A stretch of 64,000 bases of DNA, from positions 4,121-68,120 of the forward strand of contig CAINDP010000153.1 of NCBI GenBank assembly GCA_903847405.1, given 5' to 3'. Position 1 is the stretch's first letter. Each line of letters opens with the position of its first letter. Under the pieces are notes generated by a model, which made no database searches, had not been told where the DNA came from, and saw only the letters and a list, made by a program, of their open reading frames with translations. This document shows, piece by piece, positions 25,096 through 51,099 of this stretch. The position numbers and the translations under genes were made by a program. This stretch comes from an uncultured Myxococcales bacterium (GTDB lineage: Bacteria > Myxococcota_A > UBA9042 > DTJE01).

Positions 25096-25099
<4 letters not shown>

Positions 25100-28514: not shown

Positions 28515-28919
28515 CTACTGGGCCTTTCCCTTGCCGCTCTTGGCGTTGTCGCACACGCCGTCGCCGTTCGCGTCGACGAAGCCGGCGCCGTGCACGCCCT
28601 TGCCCATGCCCTGGCCCTTGCCCTGGCCCTTGCCCTGGCCCTTGCCCTTGGACATGCCCTTGCCCTGGCCGCCGGTTCCCTTCTTGTCACAGATCCCGTC
28701 GCCGTCGGCGTCCACGAAAGCCGCGCCCGTGCCGTCCTTGGCCTGGATCTGGGTCTGGTCCTTGGCCTGGACCTGGGTCTGGTCCTGGGCCTGCGTCGCC
28801 TGGCCCGCCTGGGCTCCCTGGCCCTTCCCCTTCACCGGGTCCGCGTCGTCCGCGAACGCCACCGAGGGCAGGCCCGCCATCACCACCACCAGGAACAGGT
28901 TCTTCATGTTCGTCTTCAT
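28515..28919 (-). CDS. small secreted Lys/Gln/Gly-rich protein with two DxDGDGxCD putative Ca-binding motifs (paralog of 39670..40086)
   Basis: Signal peptide MKTNMKNLFLVVVMAGLPSVAFA; GFVDADGDGICDKKG and GFVDANGDGVCDN; (GKGQ)n repeats; sigma-54 promoter upstream. Confidence 0.6.
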   Translation of the reverse strand: MKTNMKNLFLVVVMAGLPSVAFADDADPVKGKGQGAQAGQATQAQDQTQVQAKDQTQIQAKDGTGAAFVDADGDGICDKKGTGGQGKGMSKGKGQGKGQGKGQGMGKGVHGAGFVDANGDGVCDNAKSGKGKAQ

Positions 28920-28976
28920 CACCGGACCTCCTGGGCTGCAAGTACCAGCCCCCCACGGGCCGGCAAGGATTGTTGA

Positions 28977-28994
28977 TTGCGAGCGCCGTGCCAC
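28977..28994 (-). promoter_or_regulatory. sigma-54 (-24/-12) promoter TGGCAC-N5-TCGCA reading toward 28919
   Basis: Minus-strand sequence TGGCACggcgcTCGCAA; GG and GC spaced as in consensus TGGCAC-N5-TTGCA; about 55 nt upstream of start codon; NtrC-type activator gene immediately upstream. Confidence 0.55.
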
Positions 28995-29078
28995 GGGGAA
29001 AAGTATTTCACAAACACCCGTAGTCCTTGCGGTATCGCGATTTTCAGCCCGGGATGTCTGCCCGGCGCCCCCGGAACC

Positions 29079-29117
29079 TCGACGTTTTCGTCGAAGCCTC
29101 TCGACGTCCCGGTCGAA
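29079..29117. promoter_or_regulatory. two adjacent inverted repeats (TCGACG-TTTT-CGTCGA and TCGAC-N6-GTCGA), candidate enhancer (UAS) for the sigma-54 promoter about 100-130 nt downstream on minus strand
   Basis: Perfect palindromes read directly; same pair conserved upstream of second promoter copy near 40247..40285. Confidence 0.4.
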
Positions 29118-29124
29118 CCGGCCG

Positions 29125-30492: not shown

Positions 30493-32297
30493 CGTTGCAT
30501 TCCTTCCGCCTGCCCCTGCGGGCCGCCCTGCGTCCCCGATACGGGCAGCGTCACCGTCGCCCGTGTACCGCTGCCCGGAATCGAGTCCAGGACCAGGGTT
30601 CCCCCGTGCGCCTCGGCCAGACGCCGGGCCAGGGGCAGGCCCAGGCCCGTCCCGTGGGCCTTCGTCGTCACGAAGGGCGCCTGCACGCGCTCCAGCGTCG
30701 CGGCGTCCATCCCCGGGCCGTCGTCGGACACCACCAGCCGGAACGCGCCCCGGTCGCAGTCCGCCGCGACCGTGACACGACCTGCCGGTCCCACCGCATC
30801 CAGGGCGTTCGCGACCAGGTTGGCCACGATCTGCCCGAACCGCTGCCTGTCCACCAGGACCTCGCCCGGGCAGTCGCACCGGACGTCCAGCCCCTTCCCC
30901 TCGGACGCGGCCCTCATCCCCAGCGACGCCAGGGCCTCGTGCACCAGTCCGGCGGCAGGATACGCGCGCCGGTCCAGTTCCAGCGGCTTGCCCAGCTCCA
31001 GGAACTCCGCCACGACCCGCTCGACCCGGTCCGAGGCGTCCGCCGACAGCATCAGCAGTTCGCGGAAGCCCTCCTCGTCAGCAGGGTCCACCCGGACCTC
31101 CCGGGACAGGCGCTGCAGGGCCATGCCGATGGTGTTCAGAGGGTTGCGCACCTCGTGGGCCACGGTGGCCGCCATCAGGCCCAGGGATCGCCAGTGGCGC
31201 CCCTCCTCCTCGCGATGGCGCATCGCGGCCAGGAACTCGGTCCGTCGGCGGGCGCCCCGGCCCAGCACCCAGGCCAGCGCCAGGCTCAACAGCACCGCCG
31301 CTGCCAGCACCCCGAACATGACCGCCTGCCGCAGGGCGATCCGCCGGCCGAAGCTGACCAGTTCCCCGGCATCCAGGGCCGTCCGCACCACCGCGCGGGT
31401 CCCGTCGGCCAGGTCCAGGGGCCCGATCACCTCGTACACCGACTGGCCGTCCCGCTCCAGCATCCGCCCCTGCAACCCGTCCGGCGCCCCGTCCCGGGCC
31501 TGGGCCAGCACCGGATCCTGCAGCCAGGTCGACATCTGCCCCGGCGCGGGCGAGGCCGCCAGGATCCCCCCGGGATCCTGGACCACGACGTATTCCAGGT
31601 CCTGGTCCTTCAGGTCGGCCAGAAGGGGTCCCAGGCCGACCTCCCGGCGCATCCCGTCCAGGTCGTCCCGATCCAGGCACACCACGGTCGCGACGCCGTC
31701 CCCCCGGGCCCAGGCACAGAAGACCCCCAGGTCGCGGGTTCGTTTGTCGTCCACGAAATCGCCCTCGGGCACGGCCAGGACCCCATCCACGAAGGCGACA
31801 CGCCCGGCGACAGGCACCCGATCCAGGCATCCCCGCACCCCGTCCGCATCGCGACGGGCCCAGATCGCCAGGTCCGGAACCCGCGCCTGCAGGGCGACGC
31901 AGTCCTCGCGGTCACCGGGCGGTCCCAGCAACTCCAGCAGCAGGGCCGCGGCTTCCGCCGACATCGAGTACACAAGGCCCGTGGACCACGTGGCTTCCTG
32001 GGCCGCTTCCCGAACCAGGTGGCCTGCGGAACGGGCATGGGATTCGTAGACCTGGCGCAACGCGTCGACCTGCCGGTCCTGCTCCACCCGGGTGGCGATC
32101 ACCAGGACGGCAGACAGGCCCGCCACGACCAGCGGGATCAGTCCGAATCGCAGATGGGGGTGATGCACCGTGTCCGCCCTCAAAATCGAACCATTGTAGC
32201 CTACGCGATATATTTCTTTCTTGCCATACTTGACACCTCCACCTCCGATTTCCACTCTTTGCCCGTCAGGCTCATGGCGGCATGCCGTGCAGCCCAA
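30489..32297 (-). CDS. sensor histidine kinase with large periplasmic sensor domain between two TM helices
   Basis: TM1 LIPLVVAGLSAVLVIAT, approx 270-aa periplasmic region, TM2, H-box HEVRNPLNTIGMALQRL, HATPase (GTGLGLPLARRLAEAHGG); true start probably internal (GTG near aa 44), 5' end uncertain. Confidence 0.75.
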   Translation of the reverse strand: MGCTACRHEPDGQRVEIGGGGVKYGKKEIYRVGYNGSILRADTVHHPHLRFGLIPLVVAGLSAVLVIATRVEQDRQVDALRQVYESHARSAGHLVREAAQEATWSTGLVYSMSAEAAALLLELLGPPGDREDCVALQARVPDLAIWARRDADGVRGCLDRVPVAGRVAFVDGVLAVPEGDFVDDKRTRDLGVFCAWARGDGVATVVCLDRDDLDGMRREVGLGPLLADLKDQDLEYVVVQDPGGILAASPAPGQMSTWLQDPVLAQARDGAPDGLQGRMLERDGQSVYEVIGPLDLADGTRAVVRTALDAGELVSFGRRIALRQAVMFGVLAAAVLLSLALAWVLGRGARRRTEFLAAMRHREEEGRHWRSLGLMAATVAHEVRNPLNTIGMALQRLSREVRVDPADEEGFRELLMLSADASDRVERVVAEFLELGKPLELDRRAYPAAGLVHEALASLGMRAASEGKGLDVRCDCPGEVLVDRQRFGQIVANLVANALDAVGPAGRVTVAADCDRGAFRLVVSDDGPGMDAATLERVQAPFVTTKAHGTGLGLPLARRLAEAHGGTLVLDSIPGSGTRATVTLPVSGTQGGPQGQAEGMQR

Positions 32298-32793: not shown

Positions 32794-34122
32794 TCAGGGA
32801 AAGCGGATCGCGAACCGCCGCATCTTCCGCATCAAGGTGGCCTTGTGGATTCCCAGGGCCTGGGCCGTCCGCACGCGGTGTCCGCCATTTTCCGCCAGCG
32901 CGGCACGGATGACCACCGCCTGGGCCTGGTCGAAGGCGTCGGAGGTCGCGGGCCCGGGAGGCAGGTCCGGAAGCGGCCCCCGGGCGATTTCCGGCGGAAG
33001 GCAGCACACGTCGATGTTCGGCCCGCGGCACAGCACGAACGCGTGCTCGATCGCGTGTTCCAGTTCGCGGATGTTCCCGGGAAAGTCGTATCGCAGCAGG
33101 GCGTCCAGCGCGTTCGGCGTCACCCCCCGGATCTCCCGGCCGGTCTGGGCAGCGAACAACTGAATGAAGTGGCGGACCAGCAGGGGGATGTCTTCCTTGC
33201 GGTCCCGCAACGCCGGCAGTTCGATCCGCACGACGTTCAGGCGATAGAACAGGTCGTCCCGGAACCGGCCCTCGGCCATCAACTGCCGCAGGTCCCGGTT
33301 CGTCGCGGTGACGACCCGTGCATCCGCCTTCACCGTTCGCGAGGACCCCAGGGGCTGGTATTCCTTCTCCTGCAGCACCCTCAGCAGTTTCACCTGCAGG
33401 GCCGTCGAGATATCCCCGATTTCGTCCAGGAACAGGGTCCCCCCCTGGGCCGCCGCGAACCGCCCGATCCGATCGTGCCGGGCGTCGGTGAAGGCACCGG
33501 CCTTGTGGCCGAACAGTTCGGATTCCAGCAGCGTGTCCGGCAGGGCGGCGCAGTTCAGGGCAACGAAAGGCCGATCCCGACGAGGGCTGCCGTCGTGGAT
33601 CGCCCGGGCGAACAGTTCCTTGCCCGAACCGCTGGGTCCCTGGATCAGCACCGTGCTGCCGGCCGCTGCGATATCCGGCAGGACGCGCAGGATTTCCTGG
33701 ATCCGGTGGCTCTTGCTGACGATGTCGCCCACCCGGAACCGTTCGCGCAACTGGCGCCGCAACAGTTCCAGTTCGGACAGGTCGCGAAAGGTTTCGACCC
33801 CGCCCACGGCCCGTCCCGAGGCGTCCTTCAACACCGCCGTCGAGATGCTGAGGGGCTTTTCCGTACCATCCCGCGCGCGCATCGTCACCCGAACGTCCAC
33901 GGCCTCACGCCCCGAACCCATCGTCGATCGAAGGGCGCAGCGCCGCGCGCAGGCGTCCGTCCGAAAGACCTCGCTGCACTGCCGCCCGAGGGCCTCGTCG
34001 CGCGTGAAGCCGGTGATGGCGTGGGCGGCCCGGTTCCAGGACGTGATCCGCCACTGGTCATCCACGGTGAAGACGCCGTCGGCGATGGAGTCCAGGATGG
34101 GATCGGTGCGGTCAGTCGGCAT
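32794..34122 (-). CDS. sigma-54-dependent transcriptional activator with N-terminal PAS domain
   Basis: PAS (ILDSIADGVFTVDDQWRITSWNRAAHAITGF), AAA+ Walker A GPSGSGKE, ESELFGHKAGAFTDA, GAFTGA-like, C-terminal Fis HTH; divergent from mrp paralog. Confidence 0.85.
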   Translation of the reverse strand: MPTDRTDPILDSIADGVFTVDDQWRITSWNRAAHAITGFTRDEALGRQCSEVFRTDACARRCALRSTMGSGREAVDVRVTMRARDGTEKPLSISTAVLKDASGRAVGGVETFRDLSELELLRRQLRERFRVGDIVSKSHRIQEILRVLPDIAAAGSTVLIQGPSGSGKELFARAIHDGSPRRDRPFVALNCAALPDTLLESELFGHKAGAFTDARHDRIGRFAAAQGGTLFLDEIGDISTALQVKLLRVLQEKEYQPLGSSRTVKADARVVTATNRDLRQLMAEGRFRDDLFYRLNVVRIELPALRDRKEDIPLLVRHFIQLFAAQTGREIRGVTPNALDALLRYDFPGNIRELEHAIEHAFVLCRGPNIDVCCLPPEIARGPLPDLPPGPATSDAFDQAQAVVIRAALAENGGHRVRTAQALGIHKATLMRKMRRFAIRFP

Positions 34123-34229
34123 CGGAACCTCCGGCCACGGGCATGGTCGCAAAATCGCGACCACGCTTCAAGGATTGCTTTGATGCACGGATGCGAATAA
34201 CTTGCAGCCGCGGATAGCGGAGGCCCCCC

Positions 34230-35168
34230 ATGGGATGCGGTTGCGGCGACGGGCAGGACACAGGCGGGTGCGGCGGACACGAGCACGGACAGACCTTCCA
34301 GCCCGATGACATGGCCCGCGCGGCGATGCGGCGGATCCCCCACAAGATCCTGGTGATGAGCGGCAAGGGAGGCGTCGGCAAGACCACCGTGGCCGTCAAC
34401 CTGGCCTACGCACTGGCGGCCGCCGGCCACAAGGTCGGGATCGTGGACGCGGACCTGCACGGGCCCGACGTCCCGCTGATGACCGGGGTCGAGGGACTGC
34501 GGGCCCAGGCCAGCGACGAGGGGCTGATCCCCATCGACGCGCCGGGCGGCGTCCGCATCCTCTCGGTGTCGTCGTTCCTGGCCTCCCCTGACGCCCCGGT
34601 GATCTGGCGCGGCCCGGCCAAGGCCGGCGTCATCGCCCAGTTCCTGGGCCTGGCCGACTGGAAGGGCACCGACGTCCTGATCGTGGACTGCCCCCCCGGA
34701 ACCGGGGACGAACCCCTGTCCGTGGCCCAGATGATCCCGGATGCCGACGGCGTCGTGATCGTCACGTCGCCCCAGGGCGTGTCGCTGCTGGACAGCCGCA
34801 AGTGCGTGGGCTTCGCGCGCCAGATGGACCTGCCGGTGCTGGGGATCGTCGAGAATTTCTCGGGGTTCGAATGCCCCGGTTGCGGGCGCCGCATCGACCT
34901 GTTCAAGCGGGGCGGAGGCCGTCAGGCGGCGACCGACCTGGGCGTCCGTTTCCTGGGCAGCATCCCGATCACCGAGGCGATGGTCGAAGCGGGCGATTCG
35001 GGTCGGCCCCTGGTGGTTTCGACCCCCGACGATCCGGCGTCCCTGGTACTGACCGCGATGGCACAGGAACTGGTCGCGGACTGGGTGTCCGGCAGCGTCG
35101 GCGCGCCGATCGGCGAAGGGTGTTGCGGCAGTTGCGCGTGCCACGAACCGGTTCCCGGTCAGGACTGA
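34230..35168 (+). CDS. Mrp/ApbC/NBP35 family Fe-S cluster carrier ATPase with Cys/His-rich N- and C-termini
   Basis: Deviant Walker A SGKGGVGKTT, CPxC-type motif CPGCGRR; N-term MGCGCGDGQDTGGCGGHEHG and C-term CCGSCACHEP; SD GGAGG upstream. Confidence 0.85.
   Translation: MGCGCGDGQDTGGCGGHEHGQTFQPDDMARAAMRRIPHKILVMSGKGGVGKTTVAVNLAYALAAAGHKVGIVDADLHGPDVPLMTGVEGLRAQASDEGLIPIDAPGGVRILSVSSFLASPDAPVIWRGPAKAGVIAQFLGLADWKGTDVLIVDCPPGTGDEPLSVAQMIPDADGVVIVTSPQGVSLLDSRKCVGFARQMDLPVLGIVENFSGFECPGCGRRIDLFKRGGGRQAATDLGVRFLGSIPITEAMVEAGDSGRPLVVSTPDDPASLVLTAMAQELVADWVSGSVGAPIGEGCCGSCACHEPVPGQD
34305..35040. repeat. approx 740-bp segment about 90% identical to 46655..47395 (mrp paralog core)
   Basis: Direct nucleotide comparison of both mrp genes. 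Confidence 0.8.
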
Positions 35169-39136: not shown

Positions 39137-39379
39137 GTGAACGCGAGGAGCCCCATGAGCGAGTGCGCTGCGATCGAGTTCCTGGTGGAGCAGTTGCCCG
39201 GCGGCAGGTACGTCGCCCGATCCGTCGGCGCCTGCGTGACCACCGAAGCCGACACTCTGGACGAACTCCGCGTCGCCGTCCGGGAAGCCGTGTGCTGCCA
39301 CTTCGACGAAGGCTGCCAGCCTGGCGCGATCCGACTCCGGTTCATCACCGTGGTTCGCGAGGAAGTGGTCCCCGTATGA
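39137..39379 (+). CDS. hicB: HicB-family antitoxin-like protein
   Basis: Small protein with HicB_lk-type N-terminus (AIEFLVEQLPGGRYVARSVGACVTTEADTLDELRVAVREAV); immediately upstream of and overlapping hicA. Confidence 0.5.
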   Translation: MNARSPMSECAAIEFLVEQLPGGRYVARSVGACVTTEADTLDELRVAVREAVCCHFDEGCQPGAIRLRFITVVREEVVPV

Positions 39380-39618
39380 AACATCCGCGGGATCTGTCCG
39401 CCGACGAACTGGTGCACCGGCTGAAACCCCTGGGCTATCGCGTGACCCGACAGGTCGGAAGTCATATGCGACTGACCACCGAGCAAGGCGGGCAGCACCA
39501 CATCACGATCCCGGCCCACAAGCAGGTGACTATCGGCAAGATCAACGCGTTGCTGTGGGATCTGGTGCAGCACTTCGGGATGGACCGGAAGGAACTGATG
39601 GTGCTGCTTTTCGGTTGA
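39376..39618 (+). CDS. hicA: HicA-family mRNA interferase toxin
   Basis: 80 aa; YcfA/HicA pattern LKPLGYRVTRQVGSHMRLTTEQGGQHHITIPAHKQVTIGKIN. Confidence 0.65.
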   Translation: MKHPRDLSADELVHRLKPLGYRVTRQVGSHMRLTTEQGGQHHITIPAHKQVTIGKINALLWDLVQHFGMDRKELMVLLFG

Positions 39619-39669
39619 CGGTGGCCCGGGGGAAGCGGGTTCCCCCGGGCCATCCAGGTCGGCCCCCGC

Positions 39670-40086
39670 CTACTGGGCCTTCCCCTTGCGGATCTGGGCG
39701 TTGTCGCACACCCCGTCGCCGTCCGCGTCGACGAAGCCGGCGCCGTGCAGCCCCTTGCCCTTGCCTGCCGCCTGGCCGGCGCCCTTGCCCTGGCCCTTGC
39801 CCTTGGACATGCCCTTGCCCTGGCCGCCGGTACCCTTCTTGTCGCAGATCCCGTCGCCATCGGCGTCCACGAAGCCCGCGCCCGAGCCGTCCTTGAGCTG
39901 GACCTGGGCCTGGTCCTTGGCCTGGACCTGGGTCTGGTCCTTGGCCTGATCCTGGGCCTGGGTCGCCGTGCCCGACTGGACGCCCTGCCCCTTCCCCTTC
40001 ACCGCGTCCGCGTCATCCGCGAGCGCCACCGCGGGCAGGCCCGCCATTGCCACCACCAGGAACAGGCTCTTCAAGTTCGTCTTCAT
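39670..40086 (-). CDS. small secreted Lys/Gln/Gly-rich protein with two DxDGDGxCD motifs (paralog of 28515..28919)
   Basis: Signal MMKTNLKSLFLVVAMAGLPAVALA; GFVDADGDGICDKKG and GFVDADGDGVCDN. Confidence 0.6.
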   Translation of the reverse strand: MKTNLKSLFLVVAMAGLPAVALADDADAVKGKGQGVQSGTATQAQDQAKDQTQVQAKDQAQVQLKDGSGAGFVDADGDGICDKKGTGGQGKGMSKGKGQGKGAGQAAGKGKGLHGAGFVDADGDGVCDNAQIRKGKAQ

Positions 40087-40143
40087 CACCGGACCTCCTG
40101 GGTTTCAAGCACCAGCCCCCCACGGGCCGGCAAGGAATGTCCA

Positions 40144-40161
40144 TTGCGAGCGCCGTGCCAA
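40144..40161 (-). promoter_or_regulatory. sigma-54 promoter TGGCACggcgcTCGCAA (second copy)
   Basis: Identical -24/-12 elements to copy at 28977; UAS palindromes at approx 40247..40285. Confidence 0.55.
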
Positions 40162-40341
40162 CTGGATGCATATTTCGTAAGCGTTGGTTATGTCTGCTGT
40201 ATGCGCCCTTGCGACCACCGGCTGTCGTCCGGTCGCCTCCGGGTTCCCGACGTTTTCGTCGAAGACCCTCGACGTCCCGGTCGACCCGACGATCACCCAA
40301 GGCCCGGCTTCCGGATCTGGTCGGAAACTTCAGGCCGCGCG

Positions 40342-41670
40342 CTATCCGCATCCGCCCTTGGTCACGGTCTTCTTCTGCAACCTGACCCGCTTCGTGTAGG
40401 TCGGGGCGGCGCCGTGGCCTGCCTCGTGTACCGGGTCATAGCCAGTACCCGTGGCGTCCGTCGCAAGCGCGCAGGCCGGCACGTATTCCTTTCGGGCCCG
40501 GTCGGGGTGAGCCGACGGGTTCCTGTCACCGACTGCGGCAACGAAGCGCCAGGCCAGGCGCTCCCCTCCCGTTTCCCCGGACAGTTTCTGCGCCACGCAC
40601 GGACTCGGCTGGTAGCGGTCCAGCCAGCCGTCGATCCCGCCCTCGATGACGTACAGGTTCAGGACCCCCTGGGCCCTCAGGTCCTTCCAGGCCTGCGTCG
40701 CAACCGCCTCGCCGTTGGACACGACGAACACGATGGTGTTTTCGCTGGCGCCCAGCAGCGTCCTGACGAACGCCGGGTCCCGCGCATCGCCCGGTTCGAT
40801 CCGTCGCGCACCGGACAGGTGGAACTGGTTGAAGTCCGCCTCCCCGCGCACGTCCAGCACATCCACCTTCAGCGTGAAGTCCTTCTTCAGGTCGACGACC
40901 TCGGCGGGGTCCACGAAGATTTCGCGCTCGCCCAGTTGCCGGTCCCCCTCCGACGCCACCCAGCCCCACCGGTCCTCGACCGTGGGCTGCCCCAGGACGG
41001 CCGTGGCGACCGCCAGGGCGACCAGGGTCCCTCCCCCCGCGATCCGCGCCCGGCTGCGCGGGACCAGCGGGATGTCCTTCCAGGATGTGCCCGCGCCGAA
41101 GTAGGCTTCCGCGATTTCCGCACCCCAGAACATCACCAGCGCCATCAGGACCAGCAGGACCACGACCACGCCGTAAGGGAGGCCCAGCCAGTCCGGCACG
41201 GTGAACCGACCCAGGAACGTGGACTGGAAGAACGGCTCGAAGGACTGCACGGTTTCGCCGAACGCATAGACGCCGCCGAACACGCCCAGGACGAAGAACA
41301 CCCCGTCCAGCTTCAGCGTCGAGGCCGCCACCAGGGAGGTTCCCGGGCAGAACCCGCCGACGATGAACCCGACGCCCATGATCAGCCCGCCGACGATCCC
41401 CGGCACAAGGTACGTCGGGTTGACCCACACGTGGCTGAAGTCCAGCAGGCCCAGCGCCGAGGACAGGAAAATCAGGACGGCCGCGACCACGATGCCGGTG
41501 AACATGACCTTCAGCACGGTCATTTCGCGCAGGTAGAACTGCGCCGCCAATTTGCGGGAGTCGCCGAAGCCCGACACCTCGAGGGCCGCGCCGAAGCCCA
41601 CGCCGATCAGCAGAAAGACGAGGTCGTATGCAAGGGTGCCGGCCAGCGGCGCCAGGTTGAACGGAGCCAT
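40342..41670 (-). CDS. YeeE/YedE family sulfur-compound transporter half fused to C-terminal rhodanese-like domain
   Basis: Internal ATG MAPFNLAPLAG; multi-TM PF04143-like region with GxxxGxCPG-type motif (GGFCPGTSL); C-terminal rhodanese-like fold (active-site Cys position appears to be Ser). Confidence 0.7.
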   Translation of the reverse strand: MAPFNLAPLAGTLAYDLVFLLIGVGFGAALEVSGFGDSRKLAAQFYLREMTVLKVMFTGIVVAAVLIFLSSALGLLDFSHVWVNPTYLVPGIVGGLIMGVGFIVGGFCPGTSLVAASTLKLDGVFFVLGVFGGVYAFGETVQSFEPFFQSTFLGRFTVPDWLGLPYGVVVVLLVLMALVMFWGAEIAEAYFGAGTSWKDIPLVPRSRARIAGGGTLVALAVATAVLGQPTVEDRWGWVASEGDRQLGEREIFVDPAEVVDLKKDFTLKVDVLDVRGEADFNQFHLSGARRIEPGDARDPAFVRTLLGASENTIVFVVSNGEAVATQAWKDLRAQGVLNLYVIEGGIDGWLDRYQPSPCVAQKLSGETGGERLAWRFVAAVGDRNPSAHPDRARKEYVPACALATDATGTGYDPVHEAGHGAAPTYTKRVRLQKKTVTKGGCG

Positions 41671-41681
41671 GTCGCCACCTC

Positions 41682-42203
41682 CTAGTTCCACAACCGGCGC
41701 ACGAAGTACGCCAGGGCATACCCGCCACCGAAGACCGCGAACATGAACGCGAAACTGCCGACCGACAGCACGGCGCCGCCGCTGAGGGCCTGGCCGGACG
41801 TGCAGCCGCGGGCCAGGCGGGCGCCGTACCCCATGACTGCGCCGCCCAGGAGGGCGTAGGCCCAACGCGCACGATTCGTGATGTGGGGCCCGCGACGGGT
41901 TTCCACCCGGAACCGTCGGTTCGCGATCCCGGAAATCATCCCGCCCAGGAAGGTCCCCAGCAGCATGAACACACCCGCGTTGTCCAGCGCGTTGCGGCTG
42001 CCGCCGCCGACCTCGGCGAAGTAGGCCACGCGGTCGACGTGCTCCGGGACGAACAGGTTCAGGATCGCGACCTGCACGTGGCCGATGGCCCCGGAAGCGC
42101 CCAGCCCGTTGCCGGTGATGTAGAAGGACAGGAACAGCACGACGCCCAGCAGGGCGCCGCCCACGTAGGGGTTGACGTAGGGACGCGGGGGCTTGCTAGT
42201 CAT
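41682..42203 (-). CDS. YeeE/YedE family sulfur-compound transporter half
   Basis: 4-TM protein with conserved ARLARGCTSG motif typical of YedE/YeeE (TsuA-like) repeats. Confidence 0.75.
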   Translation of the reverse strand: MTSKPPRPYVNPYVGGALLGVVLFLSFYITGNGLGASGAIGHVQVAILNLFVPEHVDRVAYFAEVGGGSRNALDNAGVFMLLGTFLGGMISGIANRRFRVETRRGPHITNRARWAYALLGGAVMGYGARLARGCTSGQALSGGAVLSVGSFAFMFAVFGGGYALAYFVRRLWN

Positions 42204-44460
42204 GGGACCCTCCCTCGGCGGACGGGACGTCGATGTCCTCCCACCCGTCGATCATCGCGCTGACATTCGAGAACACGGTCCGTCCGGTCGTCGTCAGGTA
42301 CAGGTGCAGCACGAAGAAGGACAGGAACAGCCAGGAACCCAGGTTGTGCAGGGGCGCGACCACGGTCAGCCCGCCGATGGAAGACGCAAAGTCGGGCCAG
42401 CGCGAGGCCCCCCAGATCAGCACGCCGGTGACCACCTGGAAGGGGAACAGCACGTTCAGCAGCCCCAGGTACGTGATCTGCTGCAGCGGGTTCATCTTGC
42501 GGTCGGCGGTCTTCGCGGGGTGCGGCTGGCCCACGAAGATGCCCTGCAGGTAGTACTGGGCCTGCGCCGCCACCCGCCCGGGCAGGTCGTGACGCCCGGG
42601 GACGAACTGCCGGATCGCATCGCTGGCCAGGTGGTAGAACAGCGACAGGAAGGCGTTGACGATCATCACGACGGCAACGATGTTGTGAAGCTTCACCGCC
42701 AGCGGCAGGCCCACCAGCGTCCAGTTGCCGCCGAAATGGACCTCGACCCCCGTGACCATCAGCACCAGGATGCTGGAGGCCATCAGCCAGTGCCAGACGC
42801 GCTCATAGGCGGTGTACAGGTAGGCCTTGCGCGTCGGACGATGGCCATGGGCAAAGCGGCCGCGCGCCCGGAGCCGCAGCCCGCCGTGCACCGCGACCCC
42901 GGCCAGGACGCCAGCGAACGCCAGGAAGCCGAGGCGGTCGGTCCAGGTGCCTTGCGAGTGGCCGAAGACGTGGAAGGACGCTCCCGAATCCCGCTGCAGG
43001 ACCAGGCCATGGCCGTCCGGCGACGCCACGACGCCTCCGAAGGCCAGGCCGCCTCCCTCGGGAACCGTCGGGACGACGCCGCCGGGATAGGGAGCGGAGG
43101 CCAGGGGAATCGCCGCGTTCAGACGGGAATCCTCGGCGTGACAACCGGTGCAGTCCCTCTGCACCGCGGGACCGGACACGACGTCGTGGTTCACGGGCCG
43201 CGGAACGATCGCGGTCCGGATTTGCGGATCCGCGACGCCTCCAGCCGCCAGGCGTGACCGGAGAACCGCGACCTTTGCCGGTGTGTCCAGGCGCACCTCC
43301 GCGACGTCCAGGCGGCCATCGCCGTTGCCATCCAACGCGCGCACCACCTCGTTCGCGTAGGTGTCACCCTCGAACCATGCCGCCCGGACGGCGGCAAACG
43401 GAATCTCGTCACCGGCAGGACCCGACGCCCAGAACCACCGGGTGACCAGGTTGAAGGGTGCGATGCGCATCCCCTCGGCAGGGTCCGTGCGGGCCAAAAG
43501 GAACGGCGCGTACCCCGTGGCGAAGGCCGTGTTCAGCGACTGGTCGTCGGCGCGGTCCAGGCCGCGGTACTCCACGCGCGGACCGCCACCGGGCAGCATC
43601 ACCGTGGCGTCCACCGAGCGCGCCGCCGGGCCCGCGAGGGTCGGCACGTGGCAGGCACGGCAGTCCAGCGTGTCCATGTGGCGTTTCGTGTAGGGCAGGA
43701 ACGCGTGGACCTTCAGGGGGTCGTGGCAGGACCGGCAGGTCGCGGCGACGAGTTCATGGTCCGGCCGACGCAGGAACTGGGACAGGGCAATCTTGCGCGG
43801 ATCGTTCAGCAGGAAGTCCAGCGCCGTGTGCTTCACGTCGGCCTTCGCCGGGTTGTTCCGGGCGAAGTGGCAGTCCGTGCACGCGACCAGGCGTCGCGAA
43901 TGGACGTCCCAAGGATTGGTCCGCGCCGCCTTGTCCTTCAGATTCAGCCACGAATCGCCGACGGCCTGGGGCGACAGGATTTCGCCGGTGTCGCGGGTCA
44001 GGGCGTAGGTGTGCCCACCGGACGCACCCGGGACCGCCGACTCGAAGTCGTCAGGAATCGTCAGGGGCTCCGTCCCGCCGTGGACGATCCCGTGGCAGAA
44101 GGCGCAGTTTTCGTCCCGCGGGGCCCGGATGCGGATCGCCTCCCGGCGCAGCAGGCCCGTTTCGTCGAAGACCGTCGGGTCGGTCGGCAGGCGACTGCCC
44201 TCGAAGTGGCACTCGGCGCACGTCGCCTGCCGCCCGTCCCGGGAGTGCGGGTTGTGGGCGTCGATGTAGGCGGCGTCATGGCAGGCGCCACAGGTCTTTC
44301 CCGACGACGGGGCGCCGCCGGACACCGCGATTCGCTGCCCCGCCTCGTCCAGGATCGGGAACGCCGGGTGCATCGGGTTCGCGGGCCCCTGGGCACGGGC
44401 CTCCGGCGCGAAGATGGTACCGACCACTGCCGCAAGAATGACCGCAGGAATCCGTCTCAT
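42196..44460 (-). CDS. heptaheme c-type cytochrome fused to C-terminal membrane di-heme cytochrome b-like domain
   Basis: Signal MRRIPAVILAAVVGTIFAPEARAQG; CGACH, CAECH, CAFCH, CTDCH, CRSCH, CRACH, CTGCH; C-terminal approx 230 aa with 5-6 TM helices and conserved His (cytochrome b561/NrfH-partner-like). Confidence 0.7.
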   Translation of the reverse strand: MRRIPAVILAAVVGTIFAPEARAQGPANPMHPAFPILDEAGQRIAVSGGAPSSGKTCGACHDAAYIDAHNPHSRDGRQATCAECHFEGSRLPTDPTVFDETGLLRREAIRIRAPRDENCAFCHGIVHGGTEPLTIPDDFESAVPGASGGHTYALTRDTGEILSPQAVGDSWLNLKDKAARTNPWDVHSRRLVACTDCHFARNNPAKADVKHTALDFLLNDPRKIALSQFLRRPDHELVAATCRSCHDPLKVHAFLPYTKRHMDTLDCRACHVPTLAGPAARSVDATVMLPGGGPRVEYRGLDRADDQSLNTAFATGYAPFLLARTDPAEGMRIAPFNLVTRWFWASGPAGDEIPFAAVRAAWFEGDTYANEVVRALDGNGDGRLDVAEVRLDTPAKVAVLRSRLAAGGVADPQIRTAIVPRPVNHDVVSGPAVQRDCTGCHAEDSRLNAAIPLASAPYPGGVVPTVPEGGGLAFGGVVASPDGHGLVLQRDSGASFHVFGHSQGTWTDRLGFLAFAGVLAGVAVHGGLRLRARGRFAHGHRPTRKAYLYTAYERVWHWLMASSILVLMVTGVEVHFGGNWTLVGLPLAVKLHNIVAVVMIVNAFLSLFYHLASDAIRQFVPGRHDLPGRVAAQAQYYLQGIFVGQPHPAKTADRKMNPLQQITYLGLLNVLFPFQVVTGVLIWGASRWPDFASSIGGLTVVAPLHNLGSWLFLSFFVLHLYLTTTGRTVFSNVSAMIDGWEDIDVPSAEGGSHD

Positions 44461-45929
44461 CGGCGACCTCCCGTCGTCAGCGGGTCGCCGTCGTAGCCCA
44501 GGGCCTTCCAGTCCATTCGTGTCGTCCTTTCATCGAGGTTGCCCGAGGCGGCTGCGCCTGTGCGCTCGGGCAGGCCGTGGCAATCGGTGCACTGCAGCGC
44601 GGCTTCCTTCGGCGCGACCATGTGTGACAGCGGCCAGTGCATCGCCGTCTGCGCGAAGCCATACTCGCCGCTGTACTGGATCCCCGAAGCATCCGCGCCC
44701 AGCCGCAACGCCTTCTCCCAGTCGAAGTCGTGCCAGAAGCCGCCCGCACCGCTGGTCACGGGGGGCAACAGGATGTCCCGTTTCCGGTCGTAGGGTTGCA
44801 GGGCCCGGTGGACCTTGAACGGCCAGATTTTCGCCGTGCGATCGTGGATGTTCCCGCGGGGCCGATTGATGGTTGTCGTCGTCGCCGGATCCATCGGGTC
44901 GCCCAGCAGGTATCGGTCCACGGTGCCGTTGAACCAGTCGTACTCGGGCACGATGTCGTGGTCGTACACGAACTCGCCCTTGATCTTCAGGTAGGTGTGC
45001 GGGTCGTCGGGACGGTTCGGGTCGCCGCCCTTGCTCCAGTCCCAGAACGTCTTGGTGGGCAGGCGGCGGGCGTAGGTCGGGACATGGCAGGTGGTGCAGG
45101 CGACGCTGTCAAGGTGCGTGTTGATCCGCGCATCCTGGTGCGGAGGCGCCTTGTGGCAGTCGACGCAGCCGATGCCGCCCTCGTCCGTGACGCTGACCGA
45201 AAACGCGCGGCCACGAATGAGGTGCTTTTCCGTCCGATGGCAGTCGATGCAAAGGAACCCGCTCTGCCCCATGTGGACGTCGTCGTCCCGGGTCGGGTTT
45301 TCCAGGCTGCTGTCCAGATCGCCGTGCTTCACCCCCTGGCCACCGCCGCCGTAACTGTGGCACACCGAGCAGTTTTCCCGTTTCGGGAAGCCCACCGATT
45401 TCGCCACGGCCAGCAGGTCCACACCCTTGGCCGGGAGGCCCTCGTCACCCTTCACGTAGGAACCCGAACGCTCGTGGCAGACCAGGCAGTCGACCGACTC
45501 GGCGCGGTTGAAGTCGAACTTCTCGTCCTTCCAGCCGTACCCCGCGTGGCACTTCGTGCACGAGGCCCAGTTGCCGGTGATGTTGATGCAGAAGTTGTTC
45601 AGCAGGTTCTTCTTGCCGATTCGCATCGTCCCGTCGTGTCCCGGGACCGTGACAGGATCGCCCAGCCACTGCCAGTGCGCCGTCTGCATCAGGTCCGAGG
45701 CGGCCTGGGGGTGGCAGTTCAGGCAGGCCTTCGTGACTTCCTGCGGCGTCCCGAAGGCCTCCGTGAAGAAGGGCGCGTGGTCCAGATGGGTGCGGACCCG
45801 CTTCCGGAAATCCGCCCGCGCGGCCGCGTCGGCCGGGGGATGGACGGGCGACGCGACGACCCAGGCGACGACTCCCGCAATCACCAGTGCCAGGACCACG
45901 ACCCACATCTGCTTGAACCGGCCAGTCAT
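44457..45929 (-). CDS. octaheme c-type cytochrome, tetrathionate reductase (OTR) family-like
   Basis: Signal anchor MTGRFKQMWVVVLALVIAGVVAWVVA; eight CxxCH (CLNCH, CTKCH, CLVCH, CSVCH, CIDCH, CVDCH, CTTCH, CTDCH); size about 490 aa as in Shewanella Otr. Confidence 0.65.
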   Translation of the reverse strand: MTGRFKQMWVVVLALVIAGVVAWVVASPVHPPADAAARADFRKRVRTHLDHAPFFTEAFGTPQEVTKACLNCHPQAASDLMQTAHWQWLGDPVTVPGHDGTMRIGKKNLLNNFCINITGNWASCTKCHAGYGWKDEKFDFNRAESVDCLVCHERSGSYVKGDEGLPAKGVDLLAVAKSVGFPKRENCSVCHSYGGGGQGVKHGDLDSSLENPTRDDDVHMGQSGFLCIDCHRTEKHLIRGRAFSVSVTDEGGIGCVDCHKAPPHQDARINTHLDSVACTTCHVPTYARRLPTKTFWDWSKGGDPNRPDDPHTYLKIKGEFVYDHDIVPEYDWFNGTVDRYLLGDPMDPATTTTINRPRGNIHDRTAKIWPFKVHRALQPYDRKRDILLPPVTSGAGGFWHDFDWEKALRLGADASGIQYSGEYGFAQTAMHWPLSHMVAPKEAALQCTDCHGLPERTGAAASGNLDERTTRMDWKALGYDGDPLTTGGRR

Positions 45930-46255
45930 CACGACGCCTCCTGTATGCGAATCTCGGCGGTGATCGCATCGCCCGACAGGCATTTCAGGACTTCGCCGAG
46001 TCGTTCGAGGTTCAACCTGTACCAGGCGAAGCCGCTGGCCCGCCGCACCTCGACCAGGCCGTTCATCCGCAGAATGGCCAGTTGGCCGGAAACGACGGCC
46101 TGGGGGGTTTTCAGGACCTCGGTCAACTGGCTGACGTTGGCCTCGCCTTCCCGCAGCACGGCCAGCAGTTCCAGCCGTATCGGGTGCGCCACGGCGCGCA
46201 GCAGGGTCGCCATCCGAACCGCCTTCGTCGGGTCCAGGGCCAGGGATCCCGTCAT
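45929..46255 (-). CDS. ArsR/SmtB family transcriptional regulator
   Basis: Winged HTH (LLRAVAHPIRLELLAVLREGEANVSQLTEVLKTPQAVVSGQLAILRMNGLVEV); stop overlaps cytochrome start. Confidence 0.8.
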   Translation of the reverse strand: MTGSLALDPTKAVRMATLLRAVAHPIRLELLAVLREGEANVSQLTEVLKTPQAVVSGQLAILRMNGLVEVRRASGFAWYRLNLERLGEVLKCLSGDAITAEIRIQEAS

Positions 46256-46393
46256 GGTCCACCTCCTTGCTCACCCAGCCGAGCGCAAAGCCGCCTCGGG
46301 TGCTTCCGACAGCCCCGAGCGCATCGCACGGGGTCCGGGACGGCACGGGGGTGAAGCAGGAGACGTGCCATGGACCGGCGATGTATCGAGATA

Positions 46394-46405
46394 TTGATAT
46401 ATCAG
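46394..46405. promoter_or_regulatory. perfect AT-rich palindrome TGATATATCA in arsR/mrp divergent intergenic region (candidate ArsR operator/-10)
   Basis: 10-bp perfect palindrome inside a 25-nt AT-rich island in 70% GC DNA, about 130-150 nt upstream of arsR start. Confidence 0.35.
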
Positions 46406-46579
46406 CGACTTGCGCAGAGCAGCGTCCGACAGGGGCGCTCGCCAGAGGTCGCACCGATGCCTCCTCAGGTTGCAGTTCTGCGACCTTGATGGGAGTAAAC
46501 GCTGCGTTCCCGGTTGAAGGCTTGCGTTAGTGGGCAGATGCTAATAACTTCCCCTGGGTCAAACGGTGGAGGCTACCCC

Positions 46580-47938
46580 ATGGGCTGCGGTTTTCGAAAC
46601 GATCAAGGCGCGGACGGCATTGACGGAAACGGGCCCGAGGCGTTGGCCAAGCCCGACGACCTGGCCCGCGCTGCGATGCGTCTGATTCCCCATAAGGTGC
46701 TGGTGATGAGCGGGAAAGGGGGCGTCGGCAAGACGACGGTCGCCGTCAACCTCGCGTACGCCCTGGCTGCCGCCGGCCACAAGGTCGGGATCGTGGACGC
46801 GGACATGCACGGTCCCGATGTACCGCTGATGACCGGGATCGAGGGACTGCGGGCCGAGGCCAGCGACGAGGGGTTGATCCCCATCGAGGCTCCCGGCGGG
46901 GTCCGCGTCCTGTCGGTGTCCTCGTTCCTGACCTCCCCCGACGCCCCGGTGATCTGGCGCGGTCCGGCCAAGACCGGCGTCATCGCCCAGTTCCTGGGCC
47001 TGGCCGACTGGGAAGGCACCGAGGTGCTGATCGTGGACTGCCCCCCCGGAACCGGGGACGAACCCCTGTCCGTGGCCCAGATGATCCCGGACGCCGACGG
47101 CGTCGTGATCGTGACCTCCCCGCAAGGCGTGTCGCTGCTGGACAGCCGGAAGTGCGTCGGCTTCGCCCGCCAACTGGACCTGCCTGTGCTGGGCATCGTC
47201 GAAAACTTCTCGGGGTTCGCATGCCCGGGTTGCGGCCGCCGCATCGACCTGTTCAAGCGGGGCGGGGGCCAGCGCGCGGCGGCGGAACTGGGCATCCGCT
47301 TCCTGGGCAGCATTCCCATCACCGAGGCGATGGTCGAGGCAGGCGATTCGGGGCACCCCCTGGTGGCTTCGACCCCTGACGACCCCGCATCCCAGGCCTT
47401 GGCGGCCATCGCCCTGGCGATAACGGCCGACTGGGCGACCTCGGACGCCGTCGCGGCGGACTCCGATGCGGACCGGGCTCTTCCGCCGAAAGCCCTGGGC
47501 ACCCTGCGCCTCGGCGTGACGGCCGAGGACGACGCGGGCCTCGACGCCGTGATTTCCGGCCACTTCGGCCACGCTCCGGTCGTGATGGTGGTCGAGGTCC
47601 AGGACGGGAAGGTCCTGTCGGTGAAGCCGGTGGTCAACCCCGGCGCGACCAACCACCAGCCGGGCCAGATGCCCCGATTCCTGAAGAGCCTGGACGTGGA
47701 CGTGGTGCTGACGGGAACGATGGGCGAGCACGCGAAGTCCATGTTCGACGCCTTCGGGATCAAGGTCGTAGGCGGAGCGGACGGCACGGTGGGCCAGGCC
47801 CTGAACGCCTGGATACGTGGGGATCTGGCTGTGTGGGTCCCCTGCGGAGCCCACGGACACCACGGCGGCGGGTGCGGCGGCCACGGGCATGATCACGCTG
47901 GCGGCGGTTGCGGAGGCCACACCTCCGGACAGGACTGA
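46580..47938 (+). CDS. Mrp/NBP35 family ATPase fused to C-terminal NifX/NifB-type (FeMo-cofactor-binding-like) domain and His/Gly/Cys-rich tail
   Basis: SGKGGVGKTT, CPGCGRR; C-terminal domain GHFGHAPVVMVVEVQDGKV...VDVVLTGTMGEHA; tail CGAHGHHGGGCGGHGHDHAGGGCGGH. Confidence 0.85.
   Translation: MGCGFRNDQGADGIDGNGPEALAKPDDLARAAMRLIPHKVLVMSGKGGVGKTTVAVNLAYALAAAGHKVGIVDADMHGPDVPLMTGIEGLRAEASDEGLIPIEAPGGVRVLSVSSFLTSPDAPVIWRGPAKTGVIAQFLGLADWEGTEVLIVDCPPGTGDEPLSVAQMIPDADGVVIVTSPQGVSLLDSRKCVGFARQLDLPVLGIVENFSGFACPGCGRRIDLFKRGGGQRAAAELGIRFLGSIPITEAMVEAGDSGHPLVASTPDDPASQALAAIALAITADWATSDAVAADSDADRALPPKALGTLRLGVTAEDDAGLDAVISGHFGHAPVVMVVEVQDGKVLSVKPVVNPGATNHQPGQMPRFLKSLDVDVVLTGTMGEHAKSMFDAFGIKVVGGADGTVGQALNAWIRGDLAVWVPCGAHGHHGGGCGGHGHDHAGGGCGGHTSGQD
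46655..47395. repeat. approx 740-bp segment about 90% identical to 34305..35040
   Basis: Direct nucleotide comparison. Confidence 0.8.
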
Positions 47939-49389: not shown

Positions 49390-51099
49390 ATGACCGTGGG
49401 TGGAACGGGGGGCGGTACCGCCGCGAAACTGGCGGCCTGCGGCCTGGTGCTGCTGCTGCTGCCGGTGGGTGGATGCATCCGCGAGCGGTGCTACCGGGAC
49501 CTGGATTGCCCGGCGCCGAAGGTATGCGGGGCTCAGGGAACCTGCGCCTGGCGGTGCGTCACGGCGGAGGATTGCGGATCCGGCTTCGACTGCGTCGCCC
49601 ACGCCTGCGAACCGCTGTCGGTGATCCCGGATTCGGGCCGGGAGGTCGGTGACGACGTCCCGGTGTCCGAACCCGAGTGCCCTGATGACATGGTGCTGGT
49701 ATCGAAGTCCTATTGCCTGGACCGCTACGAGGCGTCGCGAACGGACGCAACGGCGACCGGGCCCGGGGCCGATGGTTCCCGGGCCACGTCCCGGATGGGG
49801 GTGCTGCCCTGGCAGGTGGTGGACAACGCGACGGCCGCGGCGGCCTGCGTTGCGGCGGGCAAACGATTGTGCTCGCCGGCCGAGTGGGAGTACGCCTGCC
49901 ACGGTCCCGACGGGACCGAGTACGCCTATGGCAACGCCTACGCATCGACTGCCTGCAACGGGATCGACGCCTTTGGCGAGGGGGGCTTCCACCTGGCGCC
50001 CACCGGCTCGTTCCCGGGGTGCACGAATGGGTACGGCGCCTTCGACCTCAGCGGCAACCTGTGGGAGCACGTGGGGGAAGGCAGCGACATGACGGTCCGG
50101 GGCGGGGCCTTCAACTGCCGGGACTCGGCAGCATTGCACCGTTGCGGCTACGTGCCCGGCACCTGGACCCCTTCGGCGCGCGGATTCCGGTGCTGTGCTG
50201 CGCCCACCTTCCCGGCGGGCCCGCCCGAGGTCCCCGACGAGCCCCTCCTGCAGGACCTGCCGGTCCCGGTTGACGCCGCCGACATCCCGGACGTGCCGTC
50301 GCCGATCGATGCGGGGCCGGACGGTGACGGCGGAGGCTGCCTGGATCCCGACACGCCCCCGGATGCCCCCCGCGACGTGGACGCCGGGCCGTCCGATCCG
50401 GGCGCCGTCGATCCCGGCCCCACGGACTCCGGCGCGACGGACCCCGGTTCCGTGCCCCGTTGCCCCGCAGACATGGTCCCGGTGTCACCCGCCGGTGTCG
50501 CGGCCTGGTGCCTGGATCGATACGAAGCCAGTCGGGACGACGCGACGGGTTCCTCGACCGGAACCTCCTCCCGCCCGGCCAGCCGTCCCGGGGTCCTCCC
50601 CTGGCAATCCGTCACGCTGGACGCCGCGCGGACGGCCTGCGCGTCGGCGGGCAAGCGCCTGTGCACGCCGGCCGAGTGGATCAGTTCCTGCGCCGGGCCG
50701 GCCGCGACCGCCTACAGCTACGGCAACACGTATGTGGCCGACACCTGCAACGGCATCGATGCCTTCTGCGATTGTGCGGGAGCCTGCGCCGCCGTGGCCG
50801 CCTGCCCCTACCCGCACTGCCGTGTCCAGGCGTCGCCTGCCCTGGACGGGGGCCCCTGCGGGGCGTCCTTCCACGTGGTCCCCACCGGCGCCTTCCCGGC
50901 CTGCACCAACGAATGGGGCGCCTTCGACCTGAACGGGAACGTGTGGGAGATCGTGGAGCACGGGGACGGCGTCGAACACTTCCACGGCGGGGCGTACAAC
51001 TGCTCGGACTCCGAGGCTCTGCACCGCTGCGACTACGACGCCACGTGGGGACCATCCGCAAGGGGATTCCGCTGCTGCGCCGACACGGAGCCGCCGTGA
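49390..51099 (+). CDS. lipoprotein with two tandem formylglycine-generating-enzyme (FGE/SUMF1)-family domains
   Basis: Lipobox LVLLLLPVGGC; repeated FGE-like blocks CLDRYEASR...GVLPWQ...GKRLC(S/T)PAEWE...GNLWEHV/GNVWEIV...GGAFNC/GGAYNC...RGFRCC twice. Confidence 0.75.
   Translation: MTVGGTGGGTAAKLAACGLVLLLLPVGGCIRERCYRDLDCPAPKVCGAQGTCAWRCVTAEDCGSGFDCVAHACEPLSVIPDSGREVGDDVPVSEPECPDDMVLVSKSYCLDRYEASRTDATATGPGADGSRATSRMGVLPWQVVDNATAAAACVAAGKRLCSPAEWEYACHGPDGTEYAYGNAYASTACNGIDAFGEGGFHLAPTGSFPGCTNGYGAFDLSGNLWEHVGEGSDMTVRGGAFNCRDSAALHRCGYVPGTWTPSARGFRCCAAPTFPAGPPEVPDEPLLQDLPVPVDAADIPDVPSPIDAGPDGDGGGCLDPDTPPDAPRDVDAGPSDPGAVDPGPTDSGATDPGSVPRCPADMVPVSPAGVAAWCLDRYEASRDDATGSSTGTSSRPASRPGVLPWQSVTLDAARTACASAGKRLCTPAEWISSCAGPAATAYSYGNTYVADTCNGIDAFCDCAGACAAVAACPYPHCRVQASPALDGGPCGASFHVVPTGAFPACTNEWGAFDLNGNVWEIVEHGDGVEHFHGGAYNCSDSEALHRCDYDATWGPSARGFRCCADTEPP

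Follow-up and report, generated by a model that had tools for sequence, protein, structure and literature searches.

The pcoE and silE genes encode periplasmic metal "sponges" and are transcribed from separate promoters that are activated in trans by a two-component regulator; in these systems the regulators are of the OmpR type, the promoters are sigma-70 promoters and the proteins are rich in Met and His. In the ZraPSR system (HydHG/ZraP) of Escherichia coli and Salmonella, a periplasm-sensing kinase is paired with an NtrC-type sigma-54 activator, the main target of which is a small periplasmic protein encoded beside it (PMC4987338). In the present study, we analysed a contiguous stretch of 64,000 nucleotides from an uncultured Myxococcales bacterium (contig CAINDP010000153.1), referred to below as the window. 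As in ZraPSR, the window contains a histidine kinase (HK), an NtrC-type response regulator (RR) and an adjacent target gene for a small secreted protein, here named small1-A. This gene, together with its sigma-54 promoter and upstream activating sequences (UAS), forms a module (copy A) that recurs as copy B, with the gene small1-B, beside a sulfur/cytochrome operon. We consider it probable that copy B is an intact sigma-54 gene that relies on the RR in trans, and that it is the relic of an older copy of the whole locus, either paralog or xenolog, which underwent reciprocal gene loss.

The original prediction described copy B as a near-identical duplicate of copy A over approximately 600 bp, with its regulatory region included. 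Both modules lie on the minus strand, and their elements are as follows (window coordinates).

28467-29153, minus strand: copy A module, with the 3' end of the RR gene, twin UAS (29079-29116), promoter (28978-28993), small1-A and hairpin (28465-28498)
28515-28919, minus strand: small1-A, 134 aa
39623-40321, minus strand: copy B module, with a fossil of the RR 3' end, twin UAS, promoter, small1-B and hairpin
40285-40321, minus strand: fossil of the RR 3' end, non-coding, TGA in register, 26/37 identical without gaps to the RR codons ...YKMQKLGLG-stop at 29117-29153
40269-40284, no strand: promoter-distal UAS TCGACCGGGACGTCGA, exact palindrome, centre near -142, half-sites invariant in 5 aligned loci
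40247-40262, no strand: promoter-proximal UAS TCGACGAAAACGTCGG, last base A to G, centre near -120
40161-40246, minus strand: spacer between UAS and promoter (putative looping DNA), about 85 nt, 56% identical to copy A, variable across lineages
40145-40160, minus strand: sigma-54 promoter TGGCACGGCGCTCGCA (GG at -24, GC at -12), predicted start near 40134
40112-40130, minus strand: stem-loop CCGGCCC/GGGCUGG in the 5' untranslated region (5' UTR), at 28945-28963 in copy A and at the same position in 5/5 aligned loci
39670-40086, minus strand: small1-B, 138-aa secreted protein, signal peptide ...AVALA|DD, two FVDADGDG(I/V)CD motifs, rich in G, K and Q
39620-39655, minus strand: GC-rich 3' hairpin without a U tract, -34.8 kcal/mol, z -2.5, at the end of the duplicated segment

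The two segments were alignable by blastn through the regulatory region (28467-29153 against 39623-40321, 83.0% identity over 701 nt), and the mean column identity in a MAFFT alignment was 89%. The wording "near-identical" is nevertheless an overstatement in view of the blastn value and of the spacer, in which only 48/86 positions agree, with one indel. The elements on either side of the spacer were better preserved: 35/38 positions of the twin UAS (92%), all 16/16 of the sigma-54 core, 52/58 of the 5' UTR (90%), 361/417 columns of the small1 coding sequence (87%) and 41/48 positions of the 3' hairpin region (85%) were identical, and the two proteins share 110/134 aligned residues (82%). Similarity is thus not restricted to the coding sequence, and the UAS and the promoter core were retained along with it. 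The element order is also the same in each copy, running 5' to 3' on the minus strand from the twin palindromes through the spacer, TGGCACGGCGCTCGCA, the 5' UTR and the small1 open reading frame (ORF) to the GC hairpin, and homology ends right after the hairpin and approximately 37 nt upstream of the UAS. Judged by this alignment, the copies are clearly paralogous modules with conserved regulatory parts.

The sequence TGGCAC-N5-TCGCA was present exactly, as had been predicted, at 28978-28993 and 40145-40160 on the minus strand, and both copies agree with the sigma-54 promoter pattern TGGCAC-N5-TTGCW with GG and GC doublets 10 nt apart. Approximately 100-150 nt upstream, in the range of enhancer-like elements, each copy carries two 16-bp TCGAC-N6-GTCGA palindromes 22 nt apart, centred near -120 and -142. 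Both are perfect in copy A (29079-29094 and 29101-29116). The claim that copy B carries the same pair holds for the presence of the two sites and for the perfect distal one; the proximal site reads CCGACGTTTTCGTCGA (CCGAC...) and departs from the perfect form quoted earlier by one mismatch. A search of the 64 kb for twin sites (18-24 nt apart, up to 3 mismatches) returned copies A and B only, with 0.03 expected. In a five-way alignment of copy A, copy B and the corresponding loci of lineages L213, L211 and L003, the proximal TCGACGAAAACGTCGA, the distal half-sites and the TGGCAC...GC doublets were invariant and the spacer was variable. The proximal 16-mer is the same in copy A and the three other lineages; in L217, which was examined separately, the proximal site differs in its central bases. 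When genome contigs were scanned for the twin-UAS pattern, the matches listed were mostly chance matches in high-GC actinobacteria, and among them only L045 and L117 were near a sigma-54-like promoter, neither with a small protein. UAS-like matches with one mismatch were also observed inside the small1 coding sequences (28561-28576 and 39716-39731), arising from VD..GD codons, and are probably coincidental.

The transcribed ends of the module were retained as well. The 5' UTR is approximately 48 nt long in each copy and ends in GGAGG. Its stem-loop shows paired changes (CCGGCCCG/CGGGCCGG in L003), although the fold z-scores are not significant alone, and the sequence could instead act as an operator at the DNA level. 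The 3' hairpin has 13 bp in both copies, with a compensatory change from G-C to A-U between copies A and B. Scans of the window with Rfam models and for tRNA genes gave no match.

As predicted, no activator gene lies beside copy B, the upstream neighbour of which encodes a YedE/Sulf_transp protein with a rhodanese (Rhd) domain (40342-41670), and neither a transposase nor an integrase was seen among the genes called between 25.1 and 49.2 kb. Two genes for bacterial enhancer-binding proteins (bEBPs) are present in the locus, and the original prediction named both as possible activators in trans, namely the RR and a PAS-domain bEBP (PAS-bEBP, 32794-34122, minus strand). The RR and its kinase are as follows.

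29125-30492, minus strand: NtrC-type RR, REC and AAA+ domains with GAFTGA, and HTH_8
30489-32168, minus strand: sensor HK preceding the RR, 2 transmembrane segments, periplasmic domain of about 255 aa

The RR has the architecture of the NtrC family (PF00072, PF00158 and PF02954, with GAFTGA at residue 222), and copy A starts directly after its stop codon. The same arrangement recurs in five other lineages (L003, L211, L213, L217 and L219), in which the stop codon of an orthologous RR, 76-95% identical to that of the window, is followed by two TCGAC-N6-GTCGA sites, TGGCAC-N5-YYGC and a small protein. More distantly, in L152 (GC 47%), L187 (56%) and L193 (31%), a bEBP lies directly upstream of variant twin sites, a sigma-54 promoter and a member of the small1 family, and L168 (GC 72%) shows a variant twin site and sigma-54 promoter at the contig edge, its neighbour falling outside the contig. 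The helix signature ER-x-[IL]-RY[KR] (...ERAIRYK... in the window) is common to these RRs. Because the same palindromes and promoter follow the orthologous RR in other lineages, the RR at 29125-30492 is the best candidate for the cognate activator, and most likely both small1 promoters are activated by it, over a distance of approximately 11 kb in the case of copy B. This favours the first of the two activators proposed earlier. The second fits poorly: the PAS-bEBP shares only 39% identity with the RR, its recognition helix is a different one that lacks the signature above, and its likely palindrome, GGTCGC-N6-GCGACC, occurs in perfect form upstream of its own gene (34145-34162) and in similar form upstream of the ArsR operon promoter, with no such site near copy B.

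Several further observations were made on these regulators. The sigma-54 contact loop of the PAS-bEBP is GAFTDA, not the canonical GAFTGA. Four cysteines in the periplasmic domain of the HK (C90, C114, C151 and C164) are invariant in five orthologs with 58-93% identity, which hints at redox or metal sensing. Judging from the surrounding genes, the HK may respond to metals, tetrathionate, thiosulfate, polysulfide or thiol oxidants. In L003, a second twin TCGAC-N6-GTCGA site (5857-5892), with the sigma-54-like sequence CGGCGC-N5-TTGCA near 5957-5972, precedes an operon encoding a 151-aa protein, the HK and the RR, and suggests that this operon may be autoregulated; no twin site was found upstream of the window kinase.

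The origin of copy B is indicated by its surroundings, and the features involved are given below.

26978-28455, minus strand: remainder of the copy-A operon, with no counterpart in copy B, comprising small2 (28069-28455) and an outer-membrane barrel protein (OMP, 26978-28072)
40342-46255, minus strand: operon beside copy B, comprising ArsR (45929-46255), an octaheme tetrathionate-reductase-family cytochrome (OTR, 44457-45929), multiheme/cytochrome b (42196-44460), YedE (41682-42203) and YedE with rhodanese (40342-41670)
46511-47396, plus strand: second co-duplicated segment, the MrpB/NUBPL gene with 66 nt upstream, paralog of 34164-35046, 85% identical over 891 nt, synonymous divergence (Ks) 0.43

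The original prediction presented copy B as a module of approximately 600 bp placed beside the operon. Four lines of evidence speak against this view, namely the RR fossil, the co-duplicated Mrp gene, the ancestral synteny in relatives and a bimodal Ks distribution. The match level of the fossil (26/37, 70%) was reached by 6/200000 random pairs of 37-mers, true repeats included, and identity to the RR gene falls to 26% upstream of it. The Mrp and small1 segments are colinear, in the same order and orientation, with offsets of 12.35 and 11.16 kb. Two units can accordingly be recognised in the window. Unit A (approximately 36.4 to 25.1 kb) contains DsbD, MrpA, the PAS-bEBP, Trx, HK, RR, small1-A, small2, the OMP and a lipoprotein; unit B (approximately 49.2 to 39.6 kb) contains Pyr_redox, MrpB, the operon from ArsR to YedE/Rhd, the RR fossil and small1-B. 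An undivided unit was found in L217, where DsbD, Pyr_redox (reverse), Mrp (reverse), PAS-bEBP, ArsR, OTR, multiheme/cytochrome b, YedE, YedE/rhodanese, Trx (reverse), HK, RR and small1 are contiguous, and in part on the P0122 contig, which reads cytochrome b, YedE, YedE/Rhd, a 523-aa protein, OsmC, HK, RR, small1, small2 and OMP, followed by HicAB. Moreover, the intergenic region of unit B at 46256-46579 aligns with both of the L217 intergenic regions that flank the PAS-bEBP gene.

Divergence from L217 also separates the two units. The Ks values were 0.08-0.29 for unit A genes (92-95% amino acid identity) and 0.34-0.52 for unit B genes. Since the Ks of unit B is about twice that of unit A, unit B would have split from the A-type lineage approximately twice as early as the window split from L217, and because its genes are uniformly about twice as diverged, we interpret unit B as an old copy of the entire locus, either a duplicate or a xenolog, and the present gene content as the result of complementary deletions. 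For small1 itself, the Ks to L217 was 0.08 for small1-A and 0.23 for small1-B, and identity groups the three as copy A with L217 and then copy B, inside a clade that leaves out L219 and L213. Between small1-A and small1-B the Ks was 0.17 and the ratio of nonsynonymous to synonymous divergence (Ka/Ks) was 0.56. Gene conversion between the two coding sequences was considered for this Ks, set against a spacer divergence of 0.66, and was dropped: the Ks to the ortholog is proportionally low too, so codon bias suffices as an explanation. The two Mrp genes encode P-loop ATPases of the Mrp/NUBPL type, and the MrpB gene (46580-47938) has an extra C-terminal Nitro_FeMo-Co domain, which is found in neither MrpA nor the L217 ortholog.

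Herein, we propose a model of binding, trans-activation and gene loss that draws on the conservation, synteny and divergence described above. The ancestral unit would have contained DsbD, Pyr_redox, Mrp, the PAS-bEBP, the ArsR-OTR-cytochrome-YedE operon, Trx, HK, RR and small1. After the unit was doubled, unit B would have retained Pyr_redox, Mrp, the sulfur/cytochrome operon and small1 and lost the PAS-bEBP and Trx-HK-RR, leaving the 37-nt RR fossil; unit A would have retained DsbD, Mrp, the PAS-bEBP, Trx, HK, RR and small1-small2-OMP whereas its sulfur operon and Pyr_redox would have been deleted. Unit A would thus house both activators, and the ArsR operon and small1-B would be left in unit B as two orphan sigma-54 targets. 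Upon a periplasmic signal, the HK would phosphorylate the RR, dimers of which would bind both TCGAC-N6-GTCGA palindromes, in cis at copy A and in trans at copy B. The bound RR would then oligomerise and, with the unconserved spacer looped out, remodel sigma-54 RNA polymerase at TGGCAC-N5-TCGCA. The output of copy A would be small1, small2 and the outer-membrane barrel, and that of copy B a monocistronic transcript terminating at the GC hairpin. Copy B appears to be still in use because its UAS and promoter are intact while identity between the copies has fallen to 56% in the spacer and 70% in the RR fossil; that it was kept for dosage or context-specific expression, as originally suggested, is possible.

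A shorter event might also be envisaged, in which only about 700 bp, from the last RR codons to the hairpin, was duplicated, inserted after the YedE/rhodanese gene and kept for dosage. Homology limited to the two module intervals agrees with such an event, a copied segment that started inside the RR gene would account for the RR fossil equally well, and the small1 Ks of 0.17 is lower than the Mrp Ks of 0.43. However, small1 Ks is low in every comparison, and its ratio of paralog to ortholog divergence (2-3) matches that of Mrp (2). The co-duplication of Mrp in the same order and orientation and the position of small1-B outside the pair of copy A and L217 would likewise be unexpected. In addition, since in L217 and on the P0122 contig HK-RR-small1 comes directly after the sulfur operon, the adjacency of this operon and small1 looks ancestral, and HicAB follows the small1 operon region on the P0122 contig just as it follows copy B. 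We therefore regard the short duplication as improbable. Slightly less credit still can be given to a route in which most transcription of copy B stems from read-through out of the ArsR-OTR-YedE operon, which is apparently dependent on sigma-54 and the PAS-bEBP, or from the direct action of the PAS-bEBP, the UAS of copy B being vestigial. The sigma-54-type promoter upstream of ArsR (46355-46370), the 256 nt between YedE/Rhd and small1-B in which no terminator-like structure was found, and the substituted proximal UAS of copy B are compatible with this route, yet UAS and promoter are far more conserved than the spacer, which would not be expected in vestigial DNA of this age, and both the helix-turn-helix (HTH) of the PAS-bEBP, unlike that of the RR, and the missing GGTCGC-N6-GCGACC site argue against it. 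Finally, copy B might be a decaying and functionally irrelevant remnant of a lost copy of the locus, its partner genes HK, RR, small2 and OMP being gone and the Ka/Ks of small1-B (0.45-0.56 across comparisons) exceeding that of small1-A against its ortholog (0.33). This seems very unlikely, as the ORF, signal peptide, both motifs, Shine-Dalgarno sequence, promoter and UAS are all intact beside neutral DNA with 56-70% identity, and different samples contributed at least 8 contigs with the copy B sequence, which several independent metagenome assemblies (L127-L130) show in the same context.

Some observations weigh against an intact gene controlled by the RR and derived from an old copy of the whole locus. 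The proximal UAS of copy B bears the sole substitution in that 16-mer among the five aligned sequences and may bind more weakly, and the Ka/Ks of 0.56 for the small1 pair is fairly relaxed. Because no terminator separates YedE/Rhd from copy B, read-through is possible, and some of the expression of copy B may arise in this way. Since 64 kb of the genome is visible, a further RR paralog sharing this HTH might be encoded outside the window, and L217, an 18.7-kb contig, possibly belongs to a genome with unit B elsewhere. The Ks values are bimodal between the units, while protein identities disagree on the nearest lineage: YedE/Rhd is nearer to the P0122-contig protein (87%) than to that of L217 (81%), and the OMP shows the opposite, with 94% identity to the L217-sample protein and 82% to P0122. 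Given this conflict, unit B may have arisen either by in-genome duplication or by horizontal acquisition.

The product of small1 belongs to a large family, with 2155 clusters at 50% identity matching at E<=0.001, mostly 110-250 aa in length. Among homologues with a named source, the nearest, at 70%, comes from a Myxococcota bacterium. The mature protein has approximately 111-115 aa, two Cys and about 24% Gly, is rich in Lys, Gln and Asp, and is predicted to be disordered (AlphaFold pLDDT 44). The linear motif D-x-[DN]-x-D-G is present as DADGDG and DA[DN]GDG, and 11 sequences of the family all share D74, D76, G79, C81, D82 and the equivalent residues of motif 2. No Pfam-A or NCBIfam family was assigned to small1, which gave sub-threshold matches only (EF-hand_1, E 0.97; FG-GAP_3, E 0.017; in one relative, Excalibur, PF05901, E 0.098). 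A sequence search of the PDB with small1 returned low-complexity noise only and no solved relative, and a literature search for the motif strings DGDGVCD and DGDGICD retrieved nothing relevant. Our best guess, weakly held and based on analogy with ZraP, is that small1 may act in the periplasm as a buffer linked to metals or redox state, or as an accessory protein of the two-component system.

In the copy-A operon, small2 has one FVDRDGDGIQD motif and the OMP was confidently modelled as a 16-strand barrel, the fold search with which returned generic porins only (TM-score approximately 0.45-0.55). The last gene of this operon encodes a 601-aa lipoprotein (25096-26901, minus strand) with many Cys-rich repeats of the type C-x-D-G-x-x-C-T-x-D-x-C, and DNA repeats are present inside the gene (25649-26351). 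No Pfam or NCBIfam family was found for small2 and the OMP, nor any family match for the lipoprotein; for these three and small1, "PF27309 MJ0753_N" appeared as a faint precomputed match only. The trio small1-small2-OMP was also observed in L211, L213 and L219, and remotely in L175 (43% GC), in which genes for a peroxiredoxin and a membrane protein, instead of an RR gene, precede the UAS, the sigma-54 promoter and the trio (4763-6785). A reading of L175 as an "orphan" module was weakened by a kinase-like ORF (8271-8765) that begins 1.5 kb further downstream, where the contig ends, and the gene order of L175 appears to be permuted.

In the operon beside copy B, OTR belongs to TIGR04315 (540.7 bits against a curated cut-off of 375). 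The sigma-54-type promoter of this operon, TGGCACGTCTCCTGCT, lies on the minus strand approximately 100 nt upstream of ArsR, and palindromes resembling GGTCGC-N6-GCGACC (46447-46485) lie about 100-120 nt further upstream. Because the promoter and palindromes are present and the PAS-bEBP gene is directly upstream of the ArsR operon in L217, the ArsR-OTR-YedE operon looks like a second orphaned sigma-54 target. Between these palindromes and the promoter, an AT-rich near-palindrome (TATCGAGATATTGATATATCAGCGA, 46383-46406) is kept in L217 and could be an ArsR operator or a site for integration host factor. On the other side of copy B, a HicA (80 aa) and a HicB-like gene (74 aa; together 39155-39618, plus strand) converge on it, their stop codon lying 4 nt from the hairpin, and on the P0122 contig the region of the small1 operon is followed by a HicAB pair with matching lengths. 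More diverged direct repeats (72-85%) were observed at 21654-24042 and 49836-51080, within or between large ORFs.

Thus, the locus might serve as a natural example of regulon rewiring, in which, after the doubling of a locus, one copy has kept the activators and the other has kept two of the sigma-54 targets, cis pairs have become trans pairs, and the binding sites have stayed intact while the adjacent neutral DNA decayed. It also defines a candidate triad of regulator, site and target for small secreted proteins that form a large family without annotation, and it links this family to a conserved two-component system and barrel. More speculatively, and with considerable doubt, the HK, the RR, two secreted Dx[DN]xDG proteins and the barrel might constitute an undescribed envelope system, spread over genomes of 31-75% GC and controlled through the enhancer TCGAC-N6-GTCGA; its small proteins might be metal-binding (Ca2+ or thiophilic metals) or thiol-reactive buffers or co-sensors, and duplication with reciprocal loss might have rewired it here to serve a respiratory operon of the tetrathionate/thiosulfate type.

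Compared with known systems, ZraS gave the best NCBIfam resemblance of the window HK and ZraR was among the top RR matches, but the scores fall far short of the equivalog cut-offs (168 versus 479 bits for ZraS, 393 versus 760 for ZraR). Unlike ZraP, small1 is predicted to be disordered and has Dx[DN]xDG-x-C-D motifs in place of a ZraP/LTxxQ-type domain; the genes in the window run in the order HK-RR-target on one strand and are not divergent, and the operon adds a second small protein and an outer-membrane barrel. In the calcium-binding linear motif Dx[DN]xDG, position 3 is D or N (PMC3123361). Both small1 motifs follow D-x-[DN]-x-D-G plus an acidic residue, with only D or N at position 3 across the family, and thus fit this rule. 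Excalibur (DxDxDGxxCE) and TSP-3 repeats carry a Cys after the loop, as does small1, in which, however, the spacing from loop to Cys is one residue shorter than in Excalibur, and small1 has no significant Pfam match to Excalibur, EF-hand or TSP_3 and no predicted fold. With pcoE and silE, copy B shares a small, disordered periplasmic protein with its own promoter and a regulator encoded elsewhere, but regulator class, promoter class and protein composition differ, and their proteins have no sequence relationship to small1. The system itself appears to be undescribed in the literature searched, whereas its mechanism is covered by the known concepts of NtrC-type enhancers and of duplication followed by loss, and the duplication itself is an ordinary evolutionary event. 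As in other cases of segmental duplication with reciprocal loss, two colinear partial copies are observed and each gene is found in one of them, except for Mrp and small1; what differs here is that the split has parted the regulators, in unit A, from two sigma-54 targets, in unit B.

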